Virus record (IMG/VR): IMGVR_UViG_3300033049_000013
Coordinates: 1-64,000 of that record
DNA length: 64,000 nt
DNA from: a virus
Direction: 5' to 3' (one strand)
Shown: positions 3,660 to 23,900 of the stretch, piece after piece
How positions within the stretch are numbered: position 1 is the stretch's first letter
How the letters are laid out: the number at the start of each line of letters is the position of its first letter
The notes under the pieces: generated by a model
Told to the model about the DNA's origin: nothing
Database searches by the model: none
What the model saw: only the letters and a program-made list of their open reading frames with translations
Made by a program: the position numbers and the translations under genes

Positions 3660-3712
3660 ACAGTATATTGTATATTGGTTGTTATTGATAATAACACAAA
3701 ACAATCATAGCA

Positions 3713-6700
3713 ATGGCATGTCGTGTAGAAAGAAAAGCAAACACAGGTAAAATAGTAAACGTACTAAAGCCCAATGGATTAGTATCAGAAGTTTACAAGA
3801 AATTAAACTTAAAGTATAAGAATGCAGAGGTTGCATTAAGATACTATATGTTAGGATTCACAGAGGATTATATTGATTTCAATGTAAGTCCTAATACTCC
3901 TAGTAATATAAAGTATTTAGCAAAGGAGATAGCAGAGAAATCATCATTAAGGGGTACAGATAATGCTCTATTTATTAATGATGCACAACTTCGTGACATA
4001 GGAAACCAATTAGGAGAAATTCGAATGGATTTATATGTACAGGATATGCTAGGTAATGAATATATAGAACCTCAGTATAGAAATAAGGTAGCAAATCTGT
4101 TGAATCCTTTACTTAAGGAAGTAGAGAGTAGACCTATATTACAAGCATTACTGAATTCAGGTAAAGTAAATGATGTAGAGGCTGCCATTAGATTGGTAGG
4201 AGATCAAAGTGATATATTTAACAAAGTGTTAGAAATAGAACAAGATGTCTTAGAAGTCTTAGAAACTCCAAGCATACTAAGTAAGTATACTGAAATTACA
4301 CAGGATAGAGTAAGTTCAGAAGTTACATTAGATTCAATATTAGGTAGTATTACTAGCTCTATATTTAATCCAAATGGAATTCATGCAGCACTAACTACTG
4401 GATATGTAGCAAATGAATATGAACCTAGTTTCGAAAAACTAGAAAGGTTTATAGATAAGTTACCATCTAATAGTATAACTACTATTCTTCCAAAATTTGT
4501 AACTGAAGCATTAAATAATAAAACAGAAGGAATCAATACTGATGAGTATGCTAGAAGCAGACAATTAGGATTTGATTCTGATATGGCACTTACTACTGCG
4601 TTAGGAGCTAGTCCGATTAAAACAATCGAATCTCCTAGAAGTAGTTTAGTGGAAATAGAGAATGTAAAGAAAAGATTAAAATTATTGTTCGGTAATAATG
4701 TACAAGTTAGTACAGCGTTAGAACAAACACTAGATAACATAGGTCAAGAAGGACTTCCAGGTGGATTCTTTCTAGATAATGTAATCTATTTACATGATGC
4801 AGATGTTGCAGGACATGAGGCTTTTCATAAAGTATTTCATACACTGTTAACAGATAAACAGGCTACAGTGCTTCTTAATGAAGCAAAGAAGAATTTAAAC
4901 TACAGTAAAAAGCAATTGAATAATAAAATTGCCGACTTAATACTACAAGTACCTGCATATAGTGAACTAAGTAGAGAGAGATTAGAAAATCTTGTCTACG
5001 AAGAATATATGGCAGATGAATATCAAGAGTTTTTTACTAACAATAAGACTCCAGAGAATTGGCTTATGTCACTTTTCAATCTTATTAAGAATGTATTTTC
5101 GAGCGTATGGGGTAACCGCACCCAGTTGGAAGCTTTATTCCATAAAATCAACAATCGTGGATTCGCATTTACTAAGCCAAAAAGCAATAAGTACGCTATG
5201 GAACTACCAGTTTTCAAGTTACTTACCATTGGAAAAAGTAAAGATGCTTCAAATAGAACAATTGATATTGTAGCATCAGAATCAGACTCCAATGCACTCA
5301 TTTATGAGATGGCAGGAAGGTTGTATGAAATTATTAATACAACTAAGCCTGAAGGTAGTGTATTGCAAATTGCAGAGGATGAAACAATTACGTTAACTCC
5401 TAGCGATGCACTTAGGAATCCCGAAGAAGCTGTATATAATATTATGCGTGCAAGATCGTATGAATATTCAGAAGAAAACAATATAGACTTATTAGAACAA
5501 TTAGAAGACGAAGAAGAGAAATTAGACAAACTAGTTGGTCAATTAGAGACCAAAGAACAGATGTATAGTCCTAAATTTTCAAGTCAATCTAATATTTCTA
5601 ATGGTGTACTTGTTTGGGAAGAAGTTCAGAAATTGTTCCAAATATTTGGAACTGACTATCTGACAGAGAAGAATGAAGTTGCTGCTGAAAATAAAATGAC
5701 TGCAGAATCACTGGAAATGCAAAATAAAAGCGCTTATGAGTATGACCCTCTTGAATTAAGAGATAAAGACTTAAGAACTTTTATGGGTTTTATACTGTAT
5801 GAAAAAACAGATGAACTTACTGGTAATAAAATAAAGGTAGCTATAGATTCTTCTAGAGTTTATAGTAATTTACTAGTTGCCATGTCATCTAAAGAATTAC
5901 ATGAAACACCCTTTAATACTACACAACAACCTTTCTTGACAACATTAGCTTATTATGCTAAAGATAATGACGAAACTAGAGCTTTCTATAATAAACTTAT
6001 GGAAATTAGTGGAGGAAAGTCTGACCATAACTTAGTTAACTTAGTTAGAAAGAGTTTGGATAACATGAGAATATCATTTACCCAACTATTACAAGATCCT
6101 AATACTGGAAACTTTCAGTTAGTATCTGCTGCAAACATAGATGATGTGGTTGCACAGTTAGATACATGGGATAAAAATTGGAATGATAGCGGATTATCAG
6201 ACAATTATAATAGTAAAGCAAGGAGAAAAGAGAATACAAAAGCATTAAATACTCTATATGAGTTATTAGACCCTACAAAGAATGGAGTAAAGACAATTAT
6301 GTCTTTAGATAATCCTATGATTTTAGATTCTACTACTGGAGATTATGTATTAGATACAAATACTAAGGATAATGTTATTGATAAATTTATTAATGGGTTT
6401 ACAGCAAATAATGGTAGAGAAATCAAATCATTGTTTAAGTTAACAGGTATAGATTTATCAAGAGGATTTATTAGATATAGTATATTGAGAGAATACGATT
6501 TAATTGCTACAAGTAATATAACTGAGTACACGCAACTACAAGATATAATAAGTAATAAGGATTATCAAGGATATAAAGAATTAGCTGAAAGTGAGATTGA
6601 ACATCTTACTAGAAACGATATTCGTGAGATGGTAAGAATATTAGGTAAAAATTATAAGTCTGATGAAGTTGAAGAATATGTAAAAGAAACTACAGGTGTA

Positions 6701-9700
6701 ACTGACTTACGTAACATTCATATTGATACTAGTGAAGTAATAGACCCAGAGTCTGATAAGATTATTTTTGCTGGAGGTATGGTAGGTAGATTAAAAGATT
6801 TGGCTAAGGGTAATGTCTATTTCGATGAGACATTAATTCCTACATCATTTCAAGATTCTACAGGTAATCAAAGGTTTAACTTTGTTAAGAAGTCATTCCT
6901 ATTACTAACTACATTACGTTTACAAAATAAGAATTACAGAAAACAACTACAAGAGAAATATCCACATTTAAAAAACAATATCTTATTTAATACTGATTTC
7001 TTTAGCGAGGATGCTACAGATAAGATATTTGGAAAGGATTTTATTGCCAAGTTAATTGGAGATGTACGTCAACGTAATATGGGTACAGCTACTACAATGG
7101 ATGGTAAGCAAGATGAGCAAGCAGGGACTAATAGAAGTACAACTGAATCAGGAGAGGGTGTAACACCTAAGACCGTTGATTATGGTACATTTATGATTCT
7201 TAACTTAGCAATGTTTGCCAAGAGAAAAACCGTTAGAGTAGCTAATTCAGAAGGACAAAGTGGCTTTACTACATTACAGATTAGTGATTTCTTTACTGGT
7301 CCTAATGAGATTAAACGTACAGATATTGCTGTACCGTTACCTGTAGGTAGAAATAACCTAGAGACAGGCAAAACAATGAGTTATACAACATTAGATGGTG
7401 ACTTTAGTAGAGCTGCTATTGATACTGTATATCAATTGTTTGAAAATGAATTGGACTTAGTTAAAGAAGGAGAGCAAGAAATCAAAGATGGTCTATTAGC
7501 TTATGAGAATTTCTATAGACGTAGACCTGATGCTGAACAATTAGCTAAAAATAGAATTGAGTTAATAGAACTTAAAAGACAAGTTCGATTGTCACAATTA
7601 GAAGGTAATGCTTTAGAAAGAGCATTGCTTAAAATTAATGAATTAGAAAATCAATTTTCAGAAGAACCTACAAGTACACTATATGAAGGATTTCATGTAA
7701 GAACTGATTCTGATGGTAATATTAAAAAGGTAATAGATGATAGCGGAAACGTTACTGATTATCAATTTGGTAGAGCTACTGAGTTATGGAACTTTAAAAA
7801 GTTAGTAGATCCTAATTCAACTTCGTACACTCCTGCACTAGTCAAATACATGACTAGTAGAAAGCGCTTATTAACTCTTGATACTAAGATGTTATTAGGT
7901 GATTCACTTACACCGCAAGAGAGTGCTGATTACAATGCTTTAAAAGCTGCAACTCCATCTGCATTGCCAGTAGAGCTTAGAGCTAAAATTAAAGAAGGAT
8001 TAAGAAAATACCTTGACGAACAGTCAAAGGATTACATAAGTAAATTAGATAAGTATGATGTTATTGATTTATTACCTAACGGTGATGTAGTTAATAATAA
8101 AATACCTGCGTTACCTTACTACTATCCATCAGGAAGTAATACTCCTTTTAGATACTATCAAGATAGTAAGAATAACAAAGACAACTACAAATGGTTTATT
8201 AAAGATTACTTCGTTAATCACTACATCAATGCCTCATCTTATAATGAGATTATGGATAAAGATGCACGTATAGCTAAAGATCCTGTGGATAGAGTTAAAC
8301 GTAATGGTGGTAAAGTAGGTAATGGGGATGGTGCAGGTTCTGGTAAATCTAAATTTGGTGTAGTAAAAGAAGCATTCTTAATTAACAAACTTGGTGTAGA
8401 AAGTGAAAGAGCAGATGCTCAATCTCAACTATCTTTAGAAGGATATGAATTTCTACTAAGACGTTGGGGTAGATTCCCTGATGTTATTAAGCCAATTTTT
8501 AATAAGATTAAATTCGGATTAGAAGAAGTGACGTTTACTGAAGTTGAGAAATTAACTGACTTAAACGTAATACTAAACTCTAAGAAGACTATGTTATATG
8601 ATGGAGAGTTCTATCATAAACTATCTTACTCAATTTTATCTAGACAATATACATCTGTTTTACCTAAAAAGAATAGGAAAGCAGCATTGGAATTAAAAGA
8701 AGAGATTGAGTTAGCAGAAAAGAATGGAGATGATACAACTCAACTATGGCACGAATATGAGTCATTGTGGAGAGCACATCCAGGACATTCAGTATTGCAT
8801 AACTTACGTCGTAACATGTTATTTAATGACATCTATGGTGTAATACCGCAATCAGCTTCTAAGCTTAAAACACCTGTAGCCGCAACAAATGTAAATGGTC
8901 ATTTTGACTTTGGCTACAATATGCACGAATTAGATAATGAATTTTGGAGATTACAGATGGAGACACCATCAGGTAAATCTAAAATTACTTATTTTTCTCA
9001 GGTATTAAACCTGATTGACAACGAAATCGACAAAGCACGTTCTTATAAGATACGTGGAATAGAATATAAAATGTCAGACATTATTCAAGATTACCATAAG
9101 ATGTTAGCCAGGCGTGTAGAAAACTCTATGCAATCAGCTATGGCAGAACTAGGTAAACTAGACGATGATGGCTATTTAAATAAGCTTGATATTGAGAAAT
9201 TTCAAGCTAAATTATACGAGACACTACAGAGTTCAGGGGCAGATGATTCACTATTGAGTTTCTTTAGAGAATCTATTAAGGGTGGTACAGAAATGAAGTA
9301 TGATGCCAACCTACCTGCAATTAGTGCAAAGTTTCAACAGTTATTCTTAGCTCATTTCTCTAAAGGAGTTATGCAAGCTACTACTGTTGGTCGTAAGGTA
9401 TCTTTAATTGCCGATTGGGGTAATGAAGTTATTGTAGGGATTGATGATAATATAATTAAGAGAACTGAGATTGAAAAGAATTACGATACTTATGTAAATG
9501 AGGATGGTAGTTTGAAAGATGGATATACTAAACGTAGATTGAAATGGTCTACTGGTTATGCTACCGATACTGATATTACTGTTAAAGGTAAAACTTTCAC
9601 TAATGTAATAACTAGAGAAAAACTTATTGAGGGATTCCTAGATGATGGCAAAGTAATAGATTTAGTAGCTAAGACAGGTATTAATACCTTAGAGAAAATT

Positions 9701-12700
9701 GAATCACTTTCTGATGATATTTTAGTTAAGATATGGGGAGAATTAGAAGATTATAAATCTATGTCTCTATTTGGTAAATACATTGACTTTAATAAGGTTG
9801 GTGATATTACTGATGAGAATTACGAGATTTATGATATGTCACTCCGTGCAAGACTGCAAGATAACTATGATGATATTGTAGAACTTGTATTAGGTAAAGA
9901 TAACTACATTGATAATGCTGCTAAGTATCGTGAAGTATTTGGAGCAATTGAAGGTAGACTTATAGGTACTCCTGTAGATCAGTCAGTATCAGAAGTATTG
10001 ATGCCAGCTTGGGATGCATTTACTCATGGTGTTTCCGTTGGAGATACTGTGGATATTAATCATCCAGCTTGGGAATCTATTATGACTCAATTTGGTACTC
10101 GTATCCCTACTCAAGATAAGCACTCGATGATAGTATTTAAAGTAGTAGACTTCTTACCTAGTTATATGGGTGATGTTGCTGTACTACCAATGGAGACTAT
10201 ATTGCTATCAGGTGAGGATTTTGATATTGATGCAAAATACATACAGCGCAAATCATACTATCTTACTAAAGAAGGAACGGTTGATAAAATCAATATTCAC
10301 GGTGAGATACACGATGCGAAAAGTGAAGAAGCTAAATACAAAGAAGTTTTAGGAGAAGACAAAGCAGATAAGTTCAATGAAATTGATGCAATCAAGCATC
10401 GTCATTGGAGGGATTTCTTAGTGTACGTTAAGAAAAACAATAGAGCTGTTAAGTATGATTTTAAGAAACTACAAAAAGCAGAATTAGCAACAGAAGAGTA
10501 TCAAACCTTACTTCAAGAAATTGAAATGGCTAGTAACTTAGGTGATAAGCTTTTGTATGCAGAATTAAGTGATAAAAAGAAAGACCGTAGCAACCAATTG
10601 TTGTTACAAGCTATGACTGAGAATAATCTACCTAGCTCTTTCGAAGAATTTGATGTGGATGCCTTATTAAACAATGATGTTGTAAACAACATTATATTGG
10701 ATTATAATATGGCATTGTATCTGAATGCAGGGACAGTTGCTATTTCTTATACTCCAGCTTCTATGACTAAAATTCAAGGTAATAGAGACACTGGTGTTAG
10801 GGGAATTGCTGAATTAGTAAACTACATAACTGGAGATGATTTAAGTAGTTATGAATATAATACTGCTAATGGACAAATGACTGCTAAGGTATCAAATAAA
10901 ACAGGTGATGACTTGATTGGTCCAGCAGCCGTTGCAAACATTGTAAAGGCAGCATTAGCTAAGTCAGGTGTTAACTTACGTATTAAGCCAGGTAGCATTA
11001 AAGCTAGTATTGGTTTTGATAGTACTTATGATTTTAATACATTTGCTAACTATCACTCTAATGATGTAGAGTTAGCATACTCAATTTCAAATGGTAACAT
11101 TAGAAATGTTTCATTGAGACCAAACTCTGATGGTGAGTATACTACCAAACAATACCGTATTATGGATGAATTGTCTACTGTATTATCAGCAATGACTGAT
11201 AATGCTAAACATAATGATGCGGCAAAATTAAACTTTACCTTAGACACTTTAGGTGCGTATTTATATATGGTATCTTTAGGTATGGGGTTGAATAGAGCTG
11301 TACTAGTATCTAAATCACCTGTAATGGTTCATTACAATAAGATTAAAGCTGCTAGTGATACAGCATTAGTAACAGAACAGGATAAAGATAGAAATTCTAA
11401 AAATTCTGAGAAATTAATAGAGGAGGCTTATGAGACTGCTTCTAAATTGATTCTAGAAAGAATCGAACAATTAGAGAAGAAGGATACTAAGAAACAATTA
11501 AACTCTGTTAATTACCGAAACAATGAAAATTTTAAGCACAAAGATTTAGTTGATATAACTCCACAAGATTCAGGTAATCTAAATTTAGATTCTGGATACA
11601 TTGTAGAAGATATGCAACTAGCTAGGTATTTACGAGATACATATGGTATGGATTATACAGATTCGAATTTCGATAAATCTGTAATTGATACTATGACTTA
11701 TGATGAATTAATTCGAACTAGTCTAGCATTAACTAATCAATTAGATGTATTAACTGCATTTACTAGATTGGCACAGCAAGGTAGTTATCTTACTAGTTTA
11801 TCTAGAATACTTAGATTACATCAAGGGCTTAAACCTTCTTTCCATGAACTTCAAGGAATCTATGATTCTTTAGATGATTTTGGTATTGATTTGAGAAAAG
11901 TAGTATCTAATGTAGCGGATTATAATACAGCCAACTACAATGAGTTACAGATGCCTTTTTCTATTAATAAAGTTTTAGATAAAAATATAGATTTAAAAGT
12001 ATTACTAAAATCTTTTGATAAAGTAATGAAGGCTTCTAAGCATCTATTTATTTCTCAATCAAACACATTTGAAAATGTATTTAATACAATCAAACAGTCA
12101 TTGAGAAGGGGATTACAAGGAAGAGATAGAGTACTTAAAAATATCAAAGGACAGATGATGGGTTTCACCATTATTAATTCAATGCGTGAAAAGTATAAAC
12201 GTGAAGGTAGAACTTTCCCGTTTGACAGTGCTATCCTTTATTCACATTCTGGTGATACTATTTACAATCGTCTTCAAAATATCATAAAGATTGCGAAGAA
12301 AAACAATAACAATGAACTAGGAAATAACCTATTCATTAAGGCTTTACGTCGTACACCTAATAAAGCTAGTACAATTGACATGAGTAACTATCTACCTGAC
12401 GAAATTGAATTCGCAGAAGAAGAGTTCTTAGATAATGTATTAATGGAGTTAGATGAATTGACAGTGAATACACGTACTAAAAATACGCCTGAGTTTAACA
12501 ATCGTGTTATCTCAGCGTATAGAGAGTTAATGACTACTTATATTTTTGATGAGAATGGAAAACCATTAGTGAATGATGCAGGTAAATCAGTAGTAACTGA
12601 ATTTGCTGAAGATTTGTTTAATTATTTAATAATTAGAGATGGTCTACAATTTAAGCATGGTTCTTATCTGAAGTATATAGCACCAGAGATGTACCTAGAA

Positions 12701-15700
12701 ATGTCTAATGTATTGAAGGAGCTTACGAAAGCGTTTAAAGATGACCGTTGGGTTTCTACTCGTGAAGAACAAGGTATACGAGATTTATTAGGTATGGATG
12801 AAAAGACATTCAAGAGTCAATTTACTAAGATGTTTGGATTAAATCCGAAGAATCAAGAAATGTTTGGTGAGTTTAATTTTAGTAGACTATGGAGTGTACA
12901 TAAAGATTTTAAAGAAAATATGGGGATTGACGAAAATCCTGGTATTATCAATATGTATGATTCTGATGGTAAGCTATTAGAAGAAAACCATGATTACGAT
13001 TTTCCTGAATTCTTTGAAATTGATTTATCTAATATCAAGTCTTTAGTAGATAATCAATTAGTTACTGCCATTCAAAGCTTATATAACAAGCATGGTATGG
13101 AAGCCATTAAAAAGTACCCAGCATTGGGATTCTTTAAGATGAATGGTCAACCTATTTACTTTAACGAATTGACTAAAGATGAACGTAAGGAATTTGACTT
13201 GAATGAAGGCAAATATGTACAAGAAGCTATAGAGGCTAAGAATACATTAAGGAATGAGATTTTAACTTACGGAGATACACAGGATTCTGGTACGGCAACT
13301 GCAATTGTAGCAGGACAAATAAGCCGTATTTCTAGAAATACTATAAACTACGTCAAGGGTAAGTTATCTTTCCCTAGATTCATTACGCTTACTAATGATA
13401 TTATAGAAGAGGAAGAGAATTATAGAGGCTTTGTAGTAGAACAAACTGTTACTGAGAAGAATCTATTTATGCTTATTAACATTCCTGCGCTACCAATATT
13501 AAAGGATTCTGATGGTAAGGTAATACCAGCACCACCAGAACTTATAGCAGAAAGAGATAGAGGAGTTTACGTAAAAGTTAATCCTATATATACATCTCTT
13601 TATCCTTATTTACATTCAGCAACAGACTTCAAAGAGGTAATGTTGAAGAACGTATTAGATAAAGAAAAACAAGTAAAGAAGAAGTTTGCTAAACTAAGTG
13701 AAATCTTTGCAGGTTCAGCAGAACAAAAATACTTTTCTCAATTGCGAGAGACGATTCTTAATCAAAGATTTGATTACGAATTATACGAAGGTAAGTTCTC
13801 AGCGGTTTCGGCTGCTGAGGCTGCCATTGTACCTATTAAGGATAGAGTAGGTAAACTATTCTCTACTAGTACTGGTACTGCTATGGTTAATGTAATTAGT
13901 CAATTAGAATTCAACAAGCGATTAATAAGTAATGACTTTAGTGGATATAAATTCGGATTGGTTTTATTCGAAGCAGATATAGATAACATAACTAAAGGAA
14001 AACAAAGATTAATAATAATGCCTGATGAACTAAAAAGTCCTACGACTGCAGGGGAATCTGATATTGTTACAATTAAAGGACAAGAATACTTAGTACATAA
14101 TTTAGGTTTAAAAGACTTAGATTCAGTGTTGTTACATTTGCAATCTAAGGGTGAAGGAAGTAAACCTACGGAAATTTTTAACAATGTTATGGATATTAAC
14201 GCTATTAAAGATGGTGTATATGGAGACTTTATACCATTTGATGTTGTGAACGATGAAGTAGATGCTGCTAATTCTAAGGGTAAGAAAGTTGTATTAACTA
14301 TAGAACGTTATCAACATAGTAATTCTATACCTTTTAGTAAACGTCCGTACTATGGAATTCAGAATATTAATGTAGTGGATTTAGATGTCAATATTAGTAA
14401 GACACTAAATAAGTTAAAGAACGTTAATGTAAATATTGCTTCTTTAGAAAGCTTACAAGCAGACTTGGTTATTAATTTCAGTGATAATGAACTAAATCTA
14501 AATGTACCTGTAATAGATGTAAAGGAAGCTAACGAGGAGCAACTAGCTGCTGTTAAAGAGATTTTAACTACTAAAGGTGCATATAACTTAGGTATAGTGA
14601 ATGGTACTCAGGAAAATCTAAATGACTTCATTAAAGAAGCTATTAAGACAAAGAGTGTTAGTATTACTACTGATACTAATTTTCCTTATACTTCTTACTT
14701 AAGTAAACTATTAGGTAATGTAGGATATAAGTTTACTGCTAAAGAGATTCTTAAAGCAACTAAACTAGATATTCCATATACTGATTTATCAGTGGAAATT
14801 ATAGATTTTGTACAGAAGAATTACGAAGAAATAAGAAAAGAGATGCAACGATATAATCTTAAAATAAGAAAAGAACAACAACGAACTCAATTAACTTTTG
14901 ATTTTGGTAGACGTTCTGAGTACATACAGTTAGCATTTAATAATCCGATTCAACAAAACTTCTTTGATGGAAGTTATTTCTTGGAACGTGAAAATGCTGA
15001 TGGTACGAAAATATTTGGTCAATATAAAACCAAATCTCCAGGCGAGACTTCAATCGGTATGGTACAAAAGGGATTACGTACCGAGACTACTAGGAGTAAA
15101 TCTAGTATGAAAATGATTGAAAACTTAGCTGTTGCTCAAGGTATCATTGAGGGAATTGAAGGTACTATTGTATATATGGTAGATGATAATCCAAAATCTC
15201 CTACTAACGGTCAAAATGTATTTGCTAAGATTACTACTAATGAGTATACACCCAATAGAGAAGACTTTGTTAAGTTTGAAGGTTGGGCAGAAGAAGTTTG
15301 GGATTCAAGAGGTAGAGTATTAATTGATAGAGGTTACAAGTCTTTCCAATTTGAAACAATTAATGTTAATAAGAGTGAGATGCCTGTAGTTAATACCAAG
15401 ACATTCGCAATACAACCAACCTCATTAGATTTTACAATGAGTAATGTAGAGAATCATTCAGGTGGAGCATATGGTGCTGATACCTTATGGGATGCTATAG
15501 GTAGAAGACATGGTGTAGAATCACACTATCATTACAGAGATAAGGATAATGTGAAGCTATCTAAAACTTTAAAAGATGCTGGAGTGAAAGCTATGGTATT
15601 AACTGAAGATGAATTAGAACATGCTTACTTCCAAGTAGAGAAACTATTGGGATTAAAATTAACTAAGAGTATAGGTGGTAATTTAAAAGCTAGAAACTAC

Positions 15701-17779
15701 TATCAAGTTGTTAATAGTGACAGTGTACTAGCTATAGCTAACTTAGTGAATGCTAAGAATGTTATGGGAGGTACTAATGTTGCGGTACAATTAGGTATCA
15801 AACTAGGTAAACCTGTCTATGTATTTGATTTAGGTACTCGTAAATGGCATAGATGGAATGGTAATGAATTTGTAGTAACTGAAACTCCTACATTGACACA
15901 ATCATTTGCAGGAATTGGTACTAGAACTGTTCAACCATATAATATTAAGTCAGGAGACCAATGGATATTGAATCCTAAGTATACTGGAGATGAATTAGCT
16001 AATGTAGCTAAACAAGCAATCATAGATGTATATGAGAAAACAGCTAAAGCAACTGATAATGGTACTAAGATTAAAGAGTCAGGAGTGACTACACCTTTCC
16101 CTGGAGTAGAATACATAGCAGAGACTGGATTAACTGTTGAAAAAGCAAATCAATTTATTGATTTAATTGCTCCTCAGATAGAGAACCAAGCTTATGTAGA
16201 GAATGCTTCTCCAACTGCTAACTATATGTTTAGTTTTGGAGCTAGATGGGCAAGGAAAGTACCTGGCATTTGGGAGAAATCATTGCAAGGTGACAAAGTT
16301 AGGGCTGGAGATTTAAGCGAAAGACCTAATAGAATACAGATAAACCAAAAAGAGACTAGAGCATATAGTTACTTTAGTACAGACCAAAATAATAAAGCAT
16401 TACCTCCTATAAGTGATTTAGCTCCTATAATTAGTTATATAGAAGAGAACTTGAAAATCGACTTATCAGACTATGATGCGGCATTAGGTAACTTGTACTT
16501 CAATAATTCGTTTATACATCAACATAGAGATACTACGGAATCTAAATTTGCAGAAGGATATGAAGTAGTGGTTATTAATTTAGGAGCTGATGGTTCTCTA
16601 TATTATGACAATGATTTAAACTCTAGTTACAATAAGTATCAAACGGCTGGTGAATTACCTCTTGGTTTAGGTAGCATTTATTCATTTGGTGCTAAAGGTA
16701 AAAATAGATTCAAATTTCATCATAGAATTAAAGTAGGATTAGATTCTAAAAATCCTCTGAAACCAATTACTTTACCTAACGGTAAAAAGGTTAAGGATTA
16801 TAGAGCCACTATAACATTTAGACGTGTTAAAGATTTAGGACCTAATGACCCTAAATATCCTGCTAGAACTATTAAGCCTAAAGTAGAAAAACCTGTAGTA
16901 ACAGAACCAAACATCAAAGGAGAAGAGATTAGCTCATACTCTGATGGTCTAGGATTCGCTTTAACTAATCCAACATTTGTTAGTCCACGAGGAACTCTAT
17001 GGAGAAGAAACTGGACTGTAAAACAAACCAAGTGGAGAGACTACATGGCAAATGGTATTGAATTCGAAGGTACTCGATATAAAGATGTTGAGAATGCATA
17101 CCAACGAAATAAAGAACAATATGACTTTGGTGATGAGAAGTTTGAGTTAATGATGGAATTGATTCAAATCAAACTTAGGACTTATCCTAAATTGGTTGAT
17201 ATGATTGATGCTAAAGGTGGATTAGATTATATCTTTAATAGTACACATCAACCTACTAAAGGAAATAGTAACTGGGAAACTGGTGGAAACAATGATTTCA
17301 TTAAAGCGCTTGGTGAAGCTTATAGAGATGTATCTAAGAGTAGACTATTAAGTGAGACTAATAAAGATGACTACTTAGCATATGCTGAATCAGTACAGAA
17401 GTTTATAGAGAATCCGAAAGCGATTAGTACTTATACAGGTACTATAAATGAAAGTGACTTAGGAGTATCTGGACGTGTAGCAGACTTAGATTTTGAAGGT
17501 ACTGTTGCTAGTAGTGCAATTAAGCGTATTAGATCTCTTTATGCAGAAGCTGAGAGTGCTCCTAGAAAAACTATTATTATACCATATACTAATAAGCCTA
17601 CTTATTTGGGAGGCTTTTCACTTATTGATATGGCTAGTATGTTTGCTCAGGCAGGTTATCCGCCTAAGAATATTATGTTTAATAGTGGATTTGCAGCAAT
17701 TATTAAAAGTGCATCTAAATCTATTAACTTAATAACAACAGAAGATGACATAGTAAATAGAGGTGATAGTGGTTGTTAA
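3713..17779 (+). CDS. giant virion-packaged DNA-dependent RNA polymerase (crAss-like/phi14:2 gp66 type), polyvalent, 4688 aa
   Basis: RIPTQDKHS (about 10099-10125) and catalytic GEDFDID (10211-10231). Also DRVKR, ADAQ, SASK, RLQ and MTDNAK motifs; N-terminal zincin HEAFH; accessory C-terminal domains. Confidence 0.93.
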   Translation: MACRVERKANTGKIVNVLKPNGLVSEVYKKLNLKYKNAEVALRYYMLGFTEDYIDFNVSPNTPSNIKYLAKEIAEKSSLRGTDNALFINDAQLRDIGNQLGEIRMDLYVQDMLGNEYIEPQYRNKVANLLNPLLKEVESRPILQALLNSGKVNDVEAAIRLVGDQSDIFNKVLEIEQDVLEVLETPSILSKYTEITQDRVSSEVTLDSILGSITSSIFNPNGIHAALTTGYVANEYEPSFEKLERFIDKLPSNSITTILPKFVTEALNNKTEGINTDEYARSRQLGFDSDMALTTALGASPIKTIESPRSSLVEIENVKKRLKLLFGNNVQVSTALEQTLDNIGQEGLPGGFFLDNVIYLHDADVAGHEAFHKVFHTLLTDKQATVLLNEAKKNLNYSKKQLNNKIADLILQVPAYSELSRERLENLVYEEYMADEYQEFFTNNKTPENWLMSLFNLIKNVFSSVWGNRTQLEALFHKINNRGFAFTKPKSNKYAMELPVFKLLTIGKSKDASNRTIDIVASESDSNALIYEMAGRLYEIINTTKPEGSVLQIAEDETITLTPSDALRNPEEAVYNIMRARSYEYSEENNIDLLEQLEDEEEKLDKLVGQLETKEQMYSPKFSSQSNISNGVLVWEEVQKLFQIFGTDYLTEKNEVAAENKMTAESLEMQNKSAYEYDPLELRDKDLRTFMGFILYEKTDELTGNKIKVAIDSSRVYSNLLVAMSSKELHETPFNTTQQPFLTTLAYYAKDNDETRAFYNKLMEISGGKSDHNLVNLVRKSLDNMRISFTQLLQDPNTGNFQLVSAANIDDVVAQLDTWDKNWNDSGLSDNYNSKARRKENTKALNTLYELLDPTKNGVKTIMSLDNPMILDSTTGDYVLDTNTKDNVIDKFINGFTANNGREIKSLFKLTGIDLSRGFIRYSILREYDLIATSNITEYTQLQDIISNKDYQGYKELAESEIEHLTRNDIREMVRILGKNYKSDEVEEYVKETTGVTDLRNIHIDTSEVIDPESDKIIFAGGMVGRLKDLAKGNVYFDETLIPTSFQDSTGNQRFNFVKKSFLLLTTLRLQNKNYRKQLQEKYPHLKNNILFNTDFFSEDATDKIFGKDFIAKLIGDVRQRNMGTATTMDGKQDEQAGTNRSTTESGEGVTPKTVDYGTFMILNLAMFAKRKTVRVANSEGQSGFTTLQISDFFTGPNEIKRTDIAVPLPVGRNNLETGKTMSYTTLDGDFSRAAIDTVYQLFENELDLVKEGEQEIKDGLLAYENFYRRRPDAEQLAKNRIELIELKRQVRLSQLEGNALERALLKINELENQFSEEPTSTLYEGFHVRTDSDGNIKKVIDDSGNVTDYQFGRATELWNFKKLVDPNSTSYTPALVKYMTSRKRLLTLDTKMLLGDSLTPQESADYNALKAATPSALPVELRAKIKEGLRKYLDEQSKDYISKLDKYDVIDLLPNGDVVNNKIPALPYYYPSGSNTPFRYYQDSKNNKDNYKWFIKDYFVNHYINASSYNEIMDKDARIAKDPVDRVKRNGGKVGNGDGAGSGKSKFGVVKEAFLINKLGVESERADAQSQLSLEGYEFLLRRWGRFPDVIKPIFNKIKFGLEEVTFTEVEKLTDLNVILNSKKTMLYDGEFYHKLSYSILSRQYTSVLPKKNRKAALELKEEIELAEKNGDDTTQLWHEYESLWRAHPGHSVLHNLRRNMLFNDIYGVIPQSASKLKTPVAATNVNGHFDFGYNMHELDNEFWRLQMETPSGKSKITYFSQVLNLIDNEIDKARSYKIRGIEYKMSDIIQDYHKMLARRVENSMQSAMAELGKLDDDGYLNKLDIEKFQAKLYETLQSSGADDSLLSFFRESIKGGTEMKYDANLPAISAKFQQLFLAHFSKGVMQATTVGRKVSLIADWGNEVIVGIDDNIIKRTEIEKNYDTYVNEDGSLKDGYTKRRLKWSTGYATDTDITVKGKTFTNVITREKLIEGFLDDGKVIDLVAKTGINTLEKIESLSDDILVKIWGELEDYKSMSLFGKYIDFNKVGDITDENYEIYDMSLRARLQDNYDDIVELVLGKDNYIDNAAKYREVFGAIEGRLIGTPVDQSVSEVLMPAWDAFTHGVSVGDTVDINHPAWESIMTQFGTRIPTQDKHSMIVFKVVDFLPSYMGDVAVLPMETILLSGEDFDIDAKYIQRKSYYLTKEGTVDKINIHGEIHDAKSEEAKYKEVLGEDKADKFNEIDAIKHRHWRDFLVYVKKNNRAVKYDFKKLQKAELATEEYQTLLQEIEMASNLGDKLLYAELSDKKKDRSNQLLLQAMTENNLPSSFEEFDVDALLNNDVVNNIILDYNMALYLNAGTVAISYTPASMTKIQGNRDTGVRGIAELVNYITGDDLSSYEYNTANGQMTAKVSNKTGDDLIGPAAVANIVKAALAKSGVNLRIKPGSIKASIGFDSTYDFNTFANYHSNDVELAYSISNGNIRNVSLRPNSDGEYTTKQYRIMDELSTVLSAMTDNAKHNDAAKLNFTLDTLGAYLYMVSLGMGLNRAVLVSKSPVMVHYNKIKAASDTALVTEQDKDRNSKNSEKLIEEAYETASKLILERIEQLEKKDTKKQLNSVNYRNNENFKHKDLVDITPQDSGNLNLDSGYIVEDMQLARYLRDTYGMDYTDSNFDKSVIDTMTYDELIRTSLALTNQLDVLTAFTRLAQQGSYLTSLSRILRLHQGLKPSFHELQGIYDSLDDFGIDLRKVVSNVADYNTANYNELQMPFSINKVLDKNIDLKVLLKSFDKVMKASKHLFISQSNTFENVFNTIKQSLRRGLQGRDRVLKNIKGQMMGFTIINSMREKYKREGRTFPFDSAILYSHSGDTIYNRLQNIIKIAKKNNNNELGNNLFIKALRRTPNKASTIDMSNYLPDEIEFAEEEFLDNVLMELDELTVNTRTKNTPEFNNRVISAYRELMTTYIFDENGKPLVNDAGKSVVTEFAEDLFNYLIIRDGLQFKHGSYLKYIAPEMYLEMSNVLKELTKAFKDDRWVSTREEQGIRDLLGMDEKTFKSQFTKMFGLNPKNQEMFGEFNFSRLWSVHKDFKENMGIDENPGIINMYDSDGKLLEENHDYDFPEFFEIDLSNIKSLVDNQLVTAIQSLYNKHGMEAIKKYPALGFFKMNGQPIYFNELTKDERKEFDLNEGKYVQEAIEAKNTLRNEILTYGDTQDSGTATAIVAGQISRISRNTINYVKGKLSFPRFITLTNDIIEEEENYRGFVVEQTVTEKNLFMLINIPALPILKDSDGKVIPAPPELIAERDRGVYVKVNPIYTSLYPYLHSATDFKEVMLKNVLDKEKQVKKKFAKLSEIFAGSAEQKYFSQLRETILNQRFDYELYEGKFSAVSAAEAAIVPIKDRVGKLFSTSTGTAMVNVISQLEFNKRLISNDFSGYKFGLVLFEADIDNITKGKQRLIIMPDELKSPTTAGESDIVTIKGQEYLVHNLGLKDLDSVLLHLQSKGEGSKPTEIFNNVMDINAIKDGVYGDFIPFDVVNDEVDAANSKGKKVVLTIERYQHSNSIPFSKRPYYGIQNINVVDLDVNISKTLNKLKNVNVNIASLESLQADLVINFSDNELNLNVPVIDVKEANEEQLAAVKEILTTKGAYNLGIVNGTQENLNDFIKEAIKTKSVSITTDTNFPYTSYLSKLLGNVGYKFTAKEILKATKLDIPYTDLSVEIIDFVQKNYEEIRKEMQRYNLKIRKEQQRTQLTFDFGRRSEYIQLAFNNPIQQNFFDGSYFLERENADGTKIFGQYKTKSPGETSIGMVQKGLRTETTRSKSSMKMIENLAVAQGIIEGIEGTIVYMVDDNPKSPTNGQNVFAKITTNEYTPNREDFVKFEGWAEEVWDSRGRVLIDRGYKSFQFETINVNKSEMPVVNTKTFAIQPTSLDFTMSNVENHSGGAYGADTLWDAIGRRHGVESHYHYRDKDNVKLSKTLKDAGVKAMVLTEDELEHAYFQVEKLLGLKLTKSIGGNLKARNYYQVVNSDSVLAIANLVNAKNVMGGTNVAVQLGIKLGKPVYVFDLGTRKWHRWNGNEFVVTETPTLTQSFAGIGTRTVQPYNIKSGDQWILNPKYTGDELANVAKQAIIDVYEKTAKATDNGTKIKESGVTTPFPGVEYIAETGLTVEKANQFIDLIAPQIENQAYVENASPTANYMFSFGARWARKVPGIWEKSLQGDKVRAGDLSERPNRIQINQKETRAYSYFSTDQNNKALPPISDLAPIISYIEENLKIDLSDYDAALGNLYFNNSFIHQHRDTTESKFAEGYEVVVINLGADGSLYYDNDLNSSYNKYQTAGELPLGLGSIYSFGAKGKNRFKFHHRIKVGLDSKNPLKPITLPNGKKVKDYRATITFRRVKDLGPNDPKYPARTIKPKVEKPVVTEPNIKGEEISSYSDGLGFALTNPTFVSPRGTLWRRNWTVKQTKWRDYMANGIEFEGTRYKDVENAYQRNKEQYDFGDEKFELMMELIQIKLRTYPKLVDMIDAKGGLDYIFNSTHQPTKGNSNWETGGNNDFIKALGEAYRDVSKSRLLSETNKDDYLAYAESVQKFIENPKAISTYTGTINESDLGVSGRVADLDFEGTVASSAIKRIRSLYAEAESAPRKTIIIPYTNKPTYLGGFSLIDMASMFAQAGYPPKNIMFNSGFAAIIKSASKSINLITTEDDIVNRGDSGC
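4750..5160 (+). other. zincin-like metallopeptidase (MPTase) domain within the RNAP
   Basis: GHEAFHKVF (HExxH at 4814-4828) with downstream EEYMAD as third-ligand motif. Boundaries approximate. Confidence 0.8.
14990..15365 (+). other. ASCH/PUA-like domain within the RNAP
   Basis: SIGMVQKGLRTETTRS matches the ASCH G-x-[KR]-T-x-T-x-R motif; later G-TIV, FVKFEGW and FQFE. Boundaries approximate. Confidence 0.55.
15430..16050 (+). other. SLOG-superfamily (YspA/DprA-like) domain within the RNAP
   Basis: HSGGAYGADTLW...ARNYYQVVNSDSVLAI...GGTNVAVQLGIKLGKPVYVFD...FAGIGTR. Boundaries approximate. Confidence 0.8.
16090..16835 (+). other. AlkB-like 2OG-Fe(II) dioxygenase domain within the RNAP
   Basis: GNLY (N-x-Y), HRD (HxD), VVINLGA, distal His in KFHHRI, and terminal RATITFR. 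Boundaries approximate. Confidence 0.85.
16915..17335 (+). other. NADAR (YbiA-like) domain within the RNAP
   Basis: ALTNP...IEFEGTRYKDVENAYQ..K...LMMELIQIKLRTYPKL...W..GGNN...AL. Boundaries approximate. Confidence 0.7.
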
Positions 17780-17908: not shown

Positions 17909-20900
17909 ATGACTTGTAAATTTGCACCCAATGGTGAAAAAAGTAAAGTATACAATGAAATTATAAAGAACTTCAATGGTAAATTAGCTAATGAAGTTTT
18001 TGTAACTACACATACTCCTAAATTTAGACAATGGTTTAGAGATTGGAGACAGATGGCAGATGGATTGGTAATGCAAGATAGTAATAGTTACAAAAGTATC
18101 TTTACTAGAGTTCAAAATAGAATGGATTTAATTACTAATCCAATTACTAATGAGCCTATTGTATTTTATACTAAAGGAGAAGTAGTACCATTACTTGATG
18201 TAGAGATTGATGCACCACTTCAACGACTATTAGATATACTACCTGCTGAATATACTAGTACAGATTCTAGTATAGAAGATAATTATGAAGTAGATAGAGC
18301 TTTTGTAGTAACTGACAAATATGAAATTGGTTCTACTCCTATATTTATAAGAAATAATAACATAGTATTAGGTAACAAGACAGACTTACTTAGATACAAT
18401 AATAGTATAATTAAAGATAAAGAAACTGGTACTTACTTTCTGTATGATACTGGTGATGCTGTATATGCTCAGGATGGTAGTGAAATAGATTTCAATCAAA
18501 CTACAATTAAGGATACCTATGGATTACAGATAGCTAAAAGTGTTAGTAATCAATTAGATAAAGTAAGTATCTCAGCCGACGATATTGAGAATACTTATAT
18601 CTTCGAAGAAGGTTACTTAGCTACTAATTATGCTAATATACAATTAGAGCATACTGTATTTGAAACACTAGCTCCTAGTATAGTAGAAACTATATTTATA
18701 GAGAGTCCATTGAAGTTTGAGAATCTGTATAATGATTTAGTAGAATCAATTGATACCCATGATAGTATAGTAGAAGAGATAAACCAATTATATCCTAATA
18801 AGACACTTAATGACAAGAGGAAAGACATATTAACTAACTCACTAATCTCGTTATTTAAGAACCCAATAAATAATACTGTTACTACGTACAGAATGAACAA
18901 CTTGTATAGAGACTTTACAGGTGAACTTAATCAAGTATTAAGTGGTTTTGATGTTAATGTAACAGAGCAATCTAGTTTTGCTGACTTACTAGCTGATATA
19001 GAAAGTACACCACTAAATACTAATACTACAGAACTAGGTTCTATTGTAGATAATATGATTAACTATGAAGAAGCATTAGGTGCCCCAGTAGTTAGAGACC
19101 CTATGGATCAAGCAGTAGAAGAATTTAGAAATCTTGTAGTATTCGATGATAGCATTATATTAGATGAAGATGGTAATCCAGTAACAAGTCCACATACAGG
19201 TATACCTGAAATTAAGCATGATTATTATGATGCTATTACAGCAGAACATATACTATATTCTGTTAGTGATTTGAAGAAAGAGTTTGATATACTTAAGTTT
19301 GATAAAGTAAGACTGTTTTGGGATAAGATGCAAATAGGTAAGTATGGAGGTTCTCCGACTGCTAAACGAGATGTAGATTACATTTTTAATGTTACGGACG
19401 AAGATGGTAAATTTAATGTTAAGGAAACTCAAGATAAGCGCTTGGCATTCATTAAAGCTGTATTAGCTGGTGATGTTAATAAGTATGCCGAGAGGTATCC
19501 GTTTAGTGGTGAATTGGAGAAGTTGAAAGTTAAGTATCCTATGAGGACAGAGACTATAGGAGATCCTGAGAATGACCAAGGTTATTACGAGGATGCCTCA
19601 GAAGAGGCTTATGTGAATAGATTGAAGTCAATATTCAAAGATACTATTTCAATACCTTGGCATGAGTTTATGTGGGATTTAAGGGACTGGCAAACAAGAA
19701 CTTTTGTAGGTACTAAGTTTCATAGAATGGCAGAAGCTATACTACGTGAGGAACAAGATAGAACCGACGAGTTTAGAGATAAAGATATTGCTATCTTAAA
19801 AGCACTGGATAATATTCCTAATAAAATTAAAGCTTTAAATAAACGTATATTTAAGATAGAAAAAGAGTATCGTGGTGTTATTACTCCAACTGAACGCAGT
19901 ATGTCAGTAGGAGATAAAATAGATGCACTTAGAGTACAATTTGATAAGGTTAAAGCGTATGAAGCTGAGAATAGTAAAGATACTACTACTAATAATGATG
20001 AATCTGGAAGGTTTCAAAAAGGTTATCATTCATATGAAGCAACCTTAGATAATATCGCATCACAATTCTATGGACTAGATAATCAACTACAACTGTATAA
20101 AGATTTAAAAGACCTTAAAGCACACATTAAAAGTAATGGTGGTACTATTAAAGTAGAAGTAAACTTAACTACAGACAAAGTAATAAACCATGAAGGTGAT
20201 AATATTCGTATTGCAGGTCAAGCAGATGTTCTAGTAATATACGAAAACAAAGAGTCTGTAAATCCTGATTTCAGAGGTAAGTTTGAGATTTATGATTTCA
20301 AAACAACTAAGTGGGAAATGGCTGATTCTCCTCTATTGTATTCTAAGTCTACACATGAAGGACATGATACAATAAAAGGTATGTCACCTCAAAAACAAAT
20401 GGGTCATGCTTATCAACAGTTAACCTATGCACGTGCAGTAGAAGTAGAATTAGGATTTGAATTCAAAGATGCTTATATTGTTCCAGTGTATATACCTTAT
20501 GTAAATGCTCGTACATTTAAGATGGTTGGTACTAAGTCTAAACCATTTGGTATTCCCTTTACAGAGCATGGTAAGCTTGAAGGTGATAGTGACTTGGTAG
20601 TGAACATTAGAAGCTTTAAAGGTGCTACAGTAATGGAGCATGGTGTTAAGGTAAGATACCTATCATTTAATGAGTTACAAGAATTAACTAAGCGTAGAAT
20701 ACCTTCAGGTACTACATACGATGGTAAAGAGGCTAAAGCTAATCAAAGTACAGCAGAGACTAAGTTGGAAGAACGTACTAGTAGGAGAAAGAAATCACAA
20801 GTTGATGAACTAATTAGTGACATTGAGAAGTATATACAACGTAGAATTGACGCTATTAAAGTAACCGATAGTAAAGAAAGTAGATCAAAATTAAAAGGAC

Positions 20901-23900
20901 TACAAGCTAAACTAGAGGACTTTGAAGACTTACATAAGCTATGGAGATTTACTACTGATGCTATGGATGATATTTTAGGTAGTAGTTCAGAAGATGGTGA
21001 GATACTAATTAAATCATTGGTAGATGTAGTTAAAGAAGCAGAACTATTATACTATCAAGAGAATACTCCAAAGCAATTAGCTAAGACTATTAAGACGTTA
21101 GATGATGTACGTCTGCATGTACAAAGCTATAAAGAATTATTGAATAGAGCTAAGACAATATTTGATAATGCAACTGGTGAAGAACTAGTAGCTATTAAAT
21201 CACATAAGGATTATAAGCGATTAGATAAGACAATTGCTGCTATTAATGATTTAGAGAATAACTATTTTGATTTAGCTAAAGAGTTGATGGCTGAGAGATT
21301 ATTTAAGTATGCTTCTAAGACTGGACAACAAAGTGTTGACTTACATTTTGCAGCTCAAGAAGATAGATTAAATACCGAAATAGAGAGTTTACAGATTGCT
21401 TTAGAGAATGCTAATTCACCAGAAGAAACTGCTAAGATTACAGCAACTATAGAGAAACGTAAAGCTAGACTAAAGGGTATTAATGTAAAGACTGAAGATT
21501 TAACTATTACTAAGGATTCTATATTAAATCATCTTAATCAACTGCCTTATGACATATCGTACATTCAACGTTATTTACTAGCACCTATTAGTTCTAGTGA
21601 CCATATACTAGCACTATATGCTAAGATGTTGAAGTTTAATATTATGGATGCAGAAATATCTCTACAAAAGAAAGGAGTAGATATGCAAACATTCATTGAT
21701 AACTTCTTAGAAAAATTAGGTAAGAAAAATATAGAGTACGATTCAGAGACATTCTTTGAACCTATATTGGAGACTAGAAATATCTGGGTAACTGTTACCA
21801 ATGAAAACGGAGAACGTGAGAAAGCATTAAGACCGGTAAGCGCTTTAGTAGATGAGTATGGAGTTAGAAAACATACATTAGCTAATGGAGAGTTAGTCGA
21901 ATTAGGATATAAAGAAATTATAAACGACTTTAGATTTAGATTAAATGAATTTAGACGTGATAGTAATTTCGATGAGTATAAGAAGCTTAAGAAGGACTTT
22001 GAATCTTGGATGCGTGATAATATGGAAGATGCCTATGTTAAGGAGTACTACGAATTAGAAAAAGTATGGACTGAGGATAGTATAGGTATTGAAGCTAAGT
22101 TACTTAGAGATGAATTTGATGACCAAATTAATGAAATTAGAAATGATTCAGGTAGTGAATTCGAATTAAATAAAGATGAGAAGCATGAGATTGCTAAACT
22201 TAGGTCTAAGAAAAGAGCTTTAGCTAGTATGTATACTGAATCTGGTAAATTAAAATCACTGGAAGAAATAGCTATTGCTAAGAAAATTCAAAAGTTCAGT
22301 GAACTAAATGTTAAGCTACATGACTTTGACTCTAATTATGACTTGTTTGAACATAAGAAAACCTTATTGATTAAGCATATCCAGGATAAGTATAGAAAGT
22401 TAGGTATAACAATCCCTGCTGAACAGACTCCTGAATACTTTGAATGGCTATCAGAAAATCAAGATACTTATTTAACTGACAAGTTCTATAATCGTTACAA
22501 TAAATTGAAGCTGGAAAGAGACTTACAATTTTATGCTGCGTACCATAAAAACTTAGAGCTGAAGAAGTTCTTAAATTCAAGAGAAGCTGAACGTTCAAAT
22601 GATGTTGACTTTGCCACAAAAGCACAAGAAATATTAAAAGGACAAGGACTTACAGTAGATGATTTACATAAAACAGATGCTCAAAGTATTGAAGTATCTG
22701 AGTTAAATGATAAGATTAATCAATTAATTAAGCCGTATAAGATAGGTAAGTATGTTGATTACTCATTAGTTCCTAAGAGTATATTTGTTAAGATAAAACA
22801 AATACAAAATAAGATACAAAACATTTATGCTGACTCAGACTTTAAATCTTTACCAAAGGAAGAAGCTGACAAGTTACTAAATGCACTAAGTATTAGGAAA
22901 ATATATCAATCTAATTTAGATGATTTCGGTAAGTATGAGCCAACTAACAAGTACTGGAAACACTACTATGAAAATAAAGCTATTGCTGAAGATAAAGGAT
23001 TAGATTTAGAAGATTCAACTTGGTTTAAACGTAATCATATATTTAATCCTAGAACAACACGTAATGAGCCTATTCGTATATGGCAAGAATTATTACATAC
23101 TAAAGCTAGTATATTAGGTACTGAGTCTAATAAGTATAGAGCACAAAAACAAGAAGTATTAAAGTCTTTGATGCTTGAATACCCTGACAGGACTAATTCT
23201 TGGTATAAAGAGAAGCTTAAAAAATCTAAATGGTATACTAAGCACCATGATGTAAGTGGTACTATTAAAAGGAGTTCTAGGTACTTACAAGAAGTAGACC
23301 CTGATAATGTATTTACTAAGGTTAGACCTTCTGCTGCTTATTCTACTTTCAAAGTTAAGGAAAAGTACATTAGAGATACTCAACTTAGTAGAGATGAAAA
23401 TGGCGACTTATTACCTAAGAAAAATAAATGGGTTAATAAGAAGTATAAAGATATTCAGAAAAGCAGTACATGGAAATATGCACATGATAACTTATTAGGA
23501 TTCTTTAAAGATGCACAATCAATTTTACCTCAAGAACATAGAATGGGTAATATACTTCCATTCACTAGAAAAGCTAGTAAAGAGATACTTGCAGGTAAAA
23601 AAGGTATTGTAGAGAAAGCTAAAGCTACTGGTAAATTAATAAAAGAGACCTTATTAATAAGTAATGCATTTGACTTAGAAGATGAAGGAGATAAAACTAT
23701 GTATAACTTATCGTTAGATCATAAGAAAATCCCTATGCCTTTTACTAAATCTAATTATGCAGTACAAGAAGAAGTATCTAAGGATGTTATTTCAGGAGTT
23801 ATGCAATACGTAAAAGCTGCCTATAAACATCAAGCTATAGACGATATGATGTCTGAGACTAGAATGCTAATGTCATTAGTAGACAAACGTGAAGGTCAAG

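Follow-up and report, generated by a model that had tools for sequence, protein, structure and literature searches.

The window described here is a stretch of viral DNA of 64,000 nucleotides, comprising positions 1 to 64,000 of IMG/VR record IMGVR_UViG_3300033049_000013. It includes a gene whose product, a single chain of 4,688 residues, combines a zincin-type motif, an RNA polymerase (RNAP) region of predicted crAss type, and a C-terminal tail of five further domains: an ASCH-like domain, a SLOG domain, an AlkB-type oxygenase dependent on 2-oxoglutarate (2OG) and Fe(II), a trimmed NADAR domain, and a small conserved domain of about 75 residues (Table 1). An earlier reading of the same letters, hereafter the original prediction, placed a cassette of ASCH, SLOG, AlkB, NADAR, and macro-like domains at 14990-17779 and described it as tethered to a virion RNA polymerase. 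These coordinates are right and correspond to residues 3760-4688 of an uninterrupted open reading frame (ORF). The motifs quoted for the cassette are all present: GLRTETTR (3787-3794); NHSGGAYGAD (3914-3923), RN (3994-3995), GGT (4019-4021), and KPV (4033-4035); NxY (4260-4262), HRD (4271-4273), H4337, and RATITFR (4364-4370); and YKDVENAYQ (4456-4464) and LMMELIQIK (4479-4487). They are not chance matches, because most of their residues are invariant or nearly so in alignments of the relatives.

The polymerase region and the zincin-type motif

The assignment of the protein as a crAss-type RNA polymerase is supported by sequence comparison, as the original prediction had proposed. Residues 1500-3300, used as a tblastn query against 50,697 phage records, matched 93 records, all of them crAss-type. 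The matches span residues ~2062-2312, around the DFDID motif, at 27-36% identity and with E values down to 3e-10, and they land on genes annotated as the catalytic subunit of RNAP (e.g., Carjivirus communis gp44 and crAss002). Parts of the tail are shared by 208 giant proteins of 2.6-6 thousand residues, and the module counts given below refer to the best 119 of these 208. The polymerase region is common to 94 of the 119 (BLASTP with a 600-residue query), and D[FY]DxD is intact in 93 of those 94; a short query around DxDxD run with phmmer found no relatives.

In the N-terminal part of the chain, an HExxH motif (here HEAFH) lies within a conserved region and is retained in 18 of 19 related N-terminal stretches. 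Because no Pfam model matched this region, the zincin-type call is made from the motif and its conservation. For the stretch at ~14390-14990 (residues ~3560-3760), just upstream of the ASCH-like domain, neither a relative among the 119 giant proteins nor a family match was found; this may be a linker peculiar to the lineage or a further, unrecognised domain.

Domains of the C-terminal tail

When pieces of the tail were searched with Pfam and NCBIfam models, only AlkB and, weakly, cpYpsA matched. Against PDB sequences, profiles of the NADAR-like, ASCH-like, SLOG, and small domains returned nothing or spurious matches to designed helical repeats. The other domains are identified by predicted folds, profile comparisons, and residue conservation, and searches of the tail with structural models gave a divided result: the ASCH-like and NADAR folds were recovered, whereas the region predicted to be macro-like gave no confident model.

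The ASCH-like domain, a PUA-like beta-barrel, is borne out by its predicted fold. The AlphaFold model, built on an alignment of 44 sequences, has a predicted local distance difference test score (pLDDT) of 84.6. In a Foldseek search of the PDB the best eight rows are all ASCH-type (EF3133, an ASCH domain of L. crispatus, PH0355, and YqfB); probabilities are 0.93-0.99 for the first seven and 0.66 for the eighth, at E values from 5e-3 to 0.18. VIA-align, run against 48,161 chains, likewise returned ASCH domains as all seven top matches, the best being E. coli YqfB (Z 8.8; root-mean-square deviation 2.8 Å; 89 of 102 residues aligned; identity 12%). On these predicted models the assignment to the ASCH fold is sound. 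The invariant residues of the family are G3787, R3789, T3790, T3792/T3793, R3794, T3841, E3856, G3857, and W3858, the last three forming a second invariant motif, EGW, after GxRTxTTR. The Pfam ASCH model (PF04266) matches 7 of 17 relatives, all below the cut-off (best E 2.6e-4), and a profile of the ASCH-like family found no match among PDB sequences. Iterated local searching located the domain in 25 relatives, and two scans of IMG/VR located it in 109 viral loci, mostly within a few kilobases of the polymerase motif. As a stand-alone query the ASCH-like piece found no short homologues, and within the giant proteins it found only P0121.

The SLOG-superfamily domain predicted next in the tail is upheld by profile matches. 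PHROG 768 ('DprA-like') matches it with an E value of 1.9e-10, and members of the family match the DprA, cpYpsA, LDcluster4, and Nuc_deoxyrib_tr models weakly, none of them reaching the Pfam cut-off. The SLOG alignment has 30 invariant columns, which include all the motifs quoted in the original prediction, and the loop SGGAxGxD is invariant. The tblastn matches in 75 phage records all fall on the SLOG domain, and many are annotated as DprA-like; the SLOG piece searched with phmmer and the SLOG profile gave no significant match among PDB sequences. The same SLOG family also occurs in Klebsiella phage Pylas (NC_049444.1, Schitoviridae), inside the 3,819-residue N4-type virion RNA polymerase gp65 (residues ~974-1166, nucleotides 9001-9579 of locus L155 from that phage; 36% identity, E 5e-23), and the 'RNA polymerase' of Alteromonas phage vB_AemP_PT15-A5 contains a further match. 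This domain is therefore carried by two unrelated types of virion polymerase.

The AlkB domain matches PF13532 with an E value of 5e-7 and 30.6 bits (cut-off 31.2), and the homologous stretch of one relative, P0043, reaches 80.1 bits with the same model. The Fe(II) triad (H4271, D4273, and H4337) is at least 90% conserved in 51 relatives, and the 2OG contacts N4260, Y4262, and R4370 are present and conserved in the same 51. The RxxxxxR signature corresponds to R4364-x5-R4370, with the position of R4364 mostly threonine in the relatives. An HMMER alignment to a rice homologue offered HQH as an alternative metal-binding pair; it was rejected, because HRD is favoured both by its distance from NxY and by the pattern of conservation. 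Searched with phmmer, the AlkB piece had no significant match among PDB sequences.

The NADAR domain, also named in the original prediction, is recognised as a trimmed, phage-type member of its family. The AlphaFold model has pLDDT values mostly above 90 over this domain, and VIA-align against the 48,161 chains placed YbiA first (Z 9.3; 2.5 Å; 120 residues aligned), a Phytophthora NADAR with ADP-ribose second (Z 9.2; 2.4 Å; 116 aligned), and a Geobacter NADAR third (Z 5.9), the next chain having a Z of 4.1. Profile-profile alignment (hhalign) with the canonical NADARs of the relatives gave 92.4% and an E value of 5e-7, and the central insert of the canonical members is absent. Foldseek returned nothing for this model at E <= 0.001, with YbiA at rank 23; a search of the BFVD viral library gave weak rows only, several of them named NADAR; and the NADAR-like profile had no genuine match among PDB sequences. 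Members of the family number 21 among the giant proteins, and 45 viral loci in IMG/VR carry the domain, mostly within a few kilobases of the polymerase motif. The key residues are E4460, K4467, H4512, W4521, and E4522. Among 36 sequences, E4460, K4467 (at a spacing of +7), and H4512, which sits within an invariant STHQPT, are invariant or nearly so. By motif and alignment, E4460 and K4467 correspond to E36/K43 of T4 AdfN and E43/K50 of PnNADAR, and H4512 agrees with the description of phage NADARs as carrying histidine in place of E125. As far as alignment can indicate, the catalytic residues predicted for AlkB (N4260, Y4262, H4271, D4273, H4337, and R4370) and for NADAR (E4460, K4467, and H4512) are in place.

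At the C-terminal end the original prediction finds no support. The macro-like reading of residues 4540-4688 was rejected as unsupported: the region has no match to a Macro hidden Markov model (HMM), to Pfam, or to PDB sequences, and the AlphaFold model there (residues ~4540-4688) is mostly helical with pLDDT below 50. The Macro HMM (PF01661) found nothing at E <= 1 in the whole 87-kb record, while positive controls worked. The NADAR domain is followed instead by a poorly conserved linker and by the small conserved domain, called 'LNGY' here after its family pattern (...LY..A..NP.KEF.V.Y....NLNGY...EMA.MF....IP.NI.F...F). Members of this family, which occur in 14 giant proteins and 8 viral loci, are without exception internal parts of enzyme arrays and adjoin SLOG, NADAR, or AlkB; the family has no match in Pfam or among PDB sequences. 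When the C-terminal 159 residues were searched against 1.8 billion representatives, four matches were returned, of which three are repeat-protein artefacts and one is real (P0124, over 91 residues).

Table 1. Features in the window, with nucleotide positions and, for parts of the giant protein, residue positions
Feature	Nucleotides	Strand	Residues	Basis or position
Zincin-RNAP-enzyme-array protein, 4,688 residues, one intact ORF	3713-17779	+		ORF list; translation without stops
Conserved N-terminal region with zincin-type HEAFH (nucleotides 4814-4828)	4700-5332	+	HEAFH 368-372	motif and conservation
RNA polymerase catalytic region with DFDID (nucleotides 10217-10231)	9896-10648	+	~2062-2312; DFDID 2169-2173	tblastn and motif
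ASCH-like domain (PUA-like beta-barrel)	15014-15364	+	3768-3884	predicted fold; weak Pfam matches in relatives
SLOG-superfamily domain (NHSGGAYGAD, RN, GGT, KPVYVFD, FAGIGTR)	15440-15997	+	~3910-4095	profile matches
AlkB-type 2OG-Fe(II) oxygenase with conserved N-terminal extension	16094-16837	+	~4128-4375	PF13532 and conserved residues
Trimmed phage-type NADAR domain	16907-17359	+	4399-4549	predicted fold; profile-profile alignment
Poorly conserved linker	17360-17497	+	~4550-4595	low pLDDT; no relatives cover the stretch
Small conserved domain, ~75 residues (IRSLY...YLGGFS...PPKNIMFN)	17498-17737	+	~4596-4675	profile searches
Giant ORF, 2,541 residues	17909-25534	+		downstream of the polymerase gene
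Giant ORF, 2,566 residues	25571-33271	-		next after 17909-25534
Major capsid protein	61295-62872	-		PHROG 11589, E 1.2e-38

Module exchange among relatives and genome context

The content and order of modules vary widely among the relatives. SLOG is the most frequent module (102 of the 119), followed by AlkB (47) and the NADAR-like domain (21), with a canonical NADAR in about 25 others. More than 40 module orders occur, and modules lie before or after the polymerase motif. The exact build described here (zincin, RNAP, ASCH, SLOG, AlkB, NADAR, and the small domain) is found once among 121. The predicted tethering of the tail to the polymerase stands in part: both are in the same chain here and in 94 of the 119 relatives, but some modules are N-terminal to the polymerase and the remaining 25 relatives have no detectable DxDxD region. 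Many relatives (P0007, P0009, P0027, P0043, and others) add superfamily 1 (SF1) helicases of the RecD/Pif1-like kind, ART-PolyVal, lytic transglycosylase, amidase, or DUF7831 domains; the helicase could provide these polymerases with their preferred single-stranded template. Searching IMG/VR for loci with the single protein gave no match, and it was sub-alignments that found the loci. The record IMGVR_UViG_2974731583_000001 and uncultured phage cr272_1 from pig faeces are of identical length (98,667 bp), and this gut crAss-like phage genome has an ASCH-like and a SLOG domain within a few kilobases of each other; the modules are therefore not confined to environmental phages.

The source record in IMG/VR has 87,216 bases, is about 62% complete as estimated by CheckV, and has a G+C content of ~32%. 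Two further giant ORFs follow the polymerase gene (Table 1), and a PHROG search with the first of them, the 2,541-residue protein, gave no match. Both are probably the remainder of a crAss-type block of giant virion proteins. The transcription block of crAss-like phages is made up of several large proteins with multiple domains (PMC7886860), with which the three successive giant ORFs agree. The major capsid protein is ~21% identical to the capsids of Flavobacterium psychrophilum phages of ~88 kb (FpV4 and Fpv1-3), a sequence similarity that points to a host of the Flavobacteriia type and to a distant crAss-like lineage. On balance the phage is probably of crAss type and its host a member of the Bacteroidota.

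Function of the tail and comparison with known systems

The analysis identifies the domains and shows that their catalytic residues are conserved, that the polymerase has crAss-type homologues, and that modules are shuffled among relatives. The explanation that we consider probable is that the protein is a polyvalent virion-cargo polymerase whose exchangeable tail kit removes modifications from nucleic acids or counters defence. The proposal that the tail is an injected toolkit for repair and anti-defence would, by analogy, fit published work. Proteins of crAss-type RNAPs are virion cargo (10.1101/2020.03.07.982082; PMC10172136); translocation into the host cell has been demonstrated only for gp66 of phi14:2, a polymerase that transcribes single-stranded DNA (ssDNA) (10.1101/2020.03.07.982082), and the protein-ejection model for crAss001 is termed hypothetical by its authors (PMC10172136). 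In the proposed sequence of events, the polymerase protein would be packed in the capsid and ejected with the DNA, after which it would either stay whole or be cut by its own zincin domain. Within minutes of the start of infection, the tail enzymes would then work on the ssDNA template of the phage itself or on its earliest transcripts. Oxidative removal of methyl lesions would fall to AlkB and hydrolysis of base-linked ADP-ribose (DarT1 type) to NADAR; a modified base would be bound or deacylated by the ASCH-like domain, and a nucleotide of the ADP-ribose type bound or processed by SLOG. The array itself would act as a slot, filled differently from one related phage to the next. A pre-loaded kit for cleaning templates and transcripts is the most economical explanation, because AlkB and NADAR reverse base modifications of single-stranded nucleic acid and polymerases of the gp66 type transcribe ssDNA, and also because a phage NADAR is known to clear DarT1 marks from phage DNA: T4 AdfN (gp30.3) removes DarT1 ADP-ribose from phage DNA and so counters DarTG1 (PMC11825919).

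Several observations weigh against this explanation. The whole protein, searched with phmmer against all PDB sequences, found none at E <= 0.1, gp66 included; homology to the solved gp66 of phi14:2 is for this reason indirect, running through the motif and the annotated crAss genes, and a fold with two double-psi beta-barrels, like that of gp66 (PDB 6VR4), is assumed for the polymerase core from the same motif and genes. Within the tail, the AlkB domain scores 0.6 bit under the Pfam cut-off, the Pfam ASCH model does not match this protein's own ASCH-like domain, the Pfam NADAR model (PF08719) does not match the NADAR domain and matches 1 of 14 relatives (E 0.019), and the SLOG assignment is a matter of sequence evidence throughout. 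The textbook ASCH signature is GxKxxExR. This protein and all 44 relatives have GxRTxTTR, in which arginine replaces lysine and the glutamate at the family position is missing; because GxRTxTTR and EGW depart from the textbook motif, the domain is named ASCH-like and no chemistry is assigned to it. The 25 relatives that carry modules without a DxDxD region indicate that coupling of the modules to a polymerase chain is not obligatory. Finally, packaging and ejection of a protein of 4,688 residues are expected by analogy with homologues present in virions, and the activities and substrates of the enzymes, like the proteolytic processing of the tail, are predicted.

A bolder form of the same explanation is possible, although we think it unlikely. 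It would hold that an exchangeable, fast-evolving kit for 'first-minute' de-modification has become attached, on separate occasions, to two unrelated kinds of virion RNAP, the crAss two-barrel kind and, in Pylas with its member of the same SLOG family, the N4 kind. The kit would include three unnamed families (the mini-NADAR of the histidine type, the GxRTxTTR...EGW ASCH-like domain, and the ~75-residue 'LNGY' domain), and their substrates could reveal new defences that mark incoming phage ssDNA, e.g., base acylation reversed by the ASCH-like domain.

The least unlikely of the alternatives, itself improbable, is that the tail mainly destroys small-molecule immune signals or toxic derivatives of ADP-ribose (of the cyclic ADP-ribose type, or ADP-ribose phosphates), with SLOG binding or cleaving the signal and NADAR processing its N-glycosidic bond, a mechanism already proposed for the SLOG-Macro-NADAR fusions of DNA viruses. 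Among viral SLOG domains the YpsA-like kind prevails, fusion or adjacency to NADAR and Macro domains is frequent, and a role against diffusible signals derived from ADP-ribose is predicted (PMC9503650); here SLOG and NADAR share one chain, and SLOG is the module that the relatives carry most often. For AlkB and ASCH, however, no role on signals of this kind is known, and both suggest nucleic acids as substrates; ADP-ribosylated DNA is a demonstrated target of phage NADARs; and the weak profile matches place the SLOG domain in no particular clade. The destruction of signals and the repair of nucleic acids are not mutually exclusive.

Somewhat less probable again is that the tail holds housekeeping helpers of transcription, which would repair spontaneous alkylation of the ssDNA template and process RNA ends or caps irrespective of the immune systems of the host. 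Polymerases of the gp66 type do prefer ssDNA, where 1-methyladenine (m1A) and 3-methylcytosine (m3C) lesions arise; methylated RNA is repaired by the AlkB domains that plant RNA viruses have in their replicase polyproteins (PMC2553587); and these families have roles outside defence, such as the NADAR N-glycosidase of a riboflavin intermediate and, by its PDB title, the N4-acetylcytidine (ac4C) amidohydrolase YqfB. A fixed need of transcription would not be expected to leave the rapid shuffling, gain, and loss of modules seen among the relatives, which is the pattern of conflict genes, and many relatives do without AlkB or NADAR. It is very improbable that the C-terminal domains are inactive in themselves, as decayed passengers or packing ballast: Pfam models match them weakly or not at all, the NADAR lacks its central insert, and the ASCH motif is non-canonical, but the metal and 2OG contacts of AlkB, the E/K/H/W residues of NADAR, and the R-T-TT-R...EGW residues of the ASCH-like domain are near-invariant across relatives at 20-60% identity, and the ASCH-like and NADAR models fold with high confidence.

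The reading as a pre-loaded de-modification kit, if true, has consequences beyond this locus. Phages of the crAss type are among the most abundant viruses known, and to our knowledge their survival in the first minutes inside the host is largely unknown. If the pre-packed polymerase carries enzymes that erase marks such as ADP-ribose and methyl groups, counter-defence would operate on the ssDNA template before any phage gene is expressed, and the varying module content would be a readable record of the host defences that these phages have met. The ASCH-like, mini-NADAR, and small domains are now defined families, and each can be tested as an isolated domain. The suggestion in the original prediction that the combination may be undescribed holds for the particular build: full-text literature searches that paired crAss-like or virion RNA polymerase with AlkB, NADAR, or 2OG-Fe brought up no relevant paper. 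It does not hold for the general principle, since published work already covers injected polyvalent proteins as well as fused crAss RNAP polyproteins, and for that reason only this build is regarded as undescribed.

Single domains of the tail have counterparts among known proteins. The best structural match of the ASCH-like domain, E. coli YqfB (PDB 9KYF), has the same fold, but the motif here is GxRTxTTR instead of the ASCH motif GxKxxExR, and a shared fold is not proof of a shared reaction. The NADAR domain shares its fold, the spacing of glutamate and lysine, and the phage-type histidine with T4 AdfN (PMC11825919) and with the NADAR structures 2B3W, 8BAU, and 8BAT (PMC11543638). Proteins of the AdfN type are free, of 15-20 kDa, whereas the NADAR here is a domain within a giant protein, without the central insert, and is missed by the Pfam model that describes known NADARs. 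An AlkB oxidative demethylase built into a viral polymerase polyprotein is likewise known from the replicases of plant RNA viruses (van den Born et al. 2008, PMC2553587); those are RNA viruses with RNA substrates and are not delivered from the virion, in contrast to the double-stranded DNA phage and DNA-dependent RNAP considered here. The SLOG/Macro/NADAR fusions of DNA viruses (Iyer et al. 2022, PMC9503650) similarly join SLOG and NADAR in one viral protein, and in relatives of the protein described here SLOG is joined to SF1 helicases as well. The viral domains in that survey are typically standalone, it mentions neither AlkB nor crAss phages, and the present protein has no detectable macro domain.

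At the level of the whole chain, the closest known systems are the crAss-type polymerases and the polyvalent proteins. The phi14:2 proteins gp65-gp66-gp67 and the crAss001 proteins gp47/gp49/gp50 (10.1101/2020.03.07.982082; PMC10172136) have the same DFDxD motif and a zincin-type partner, which is fused in some phages, and their genes likewise lie within a transcription block of several giant genes. Similarity to these polymerases is limited to ~250 residues around the motif, gp66 itself being undetected by phmmer; gp66 has 2,180 residues and no reported enzyme tail, whereas the protein described here has 4,688 residues and five extra domains. Polyvalent proteins (Iyer et al. 2017, PMC5512222) show the same assembly of many unrelated enzymatic domains, a zincin-type motif, and a virion RNAP in one chain, and the prediction for them is co-injection with the DNA and activity in the earliest phase of infection, as would be expected here. 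The text of that study makes no mention of NADAR, AlkB, SLOG, or ASCH. It centres on virion RNAPs of the N4 type (T7-like), ART, MuF, and lysozymes, whereas the present protein joins a polymerase of the crAss two-barrel type, as assumed from its motif and homology, to a set of predicted de-modification enzymes.

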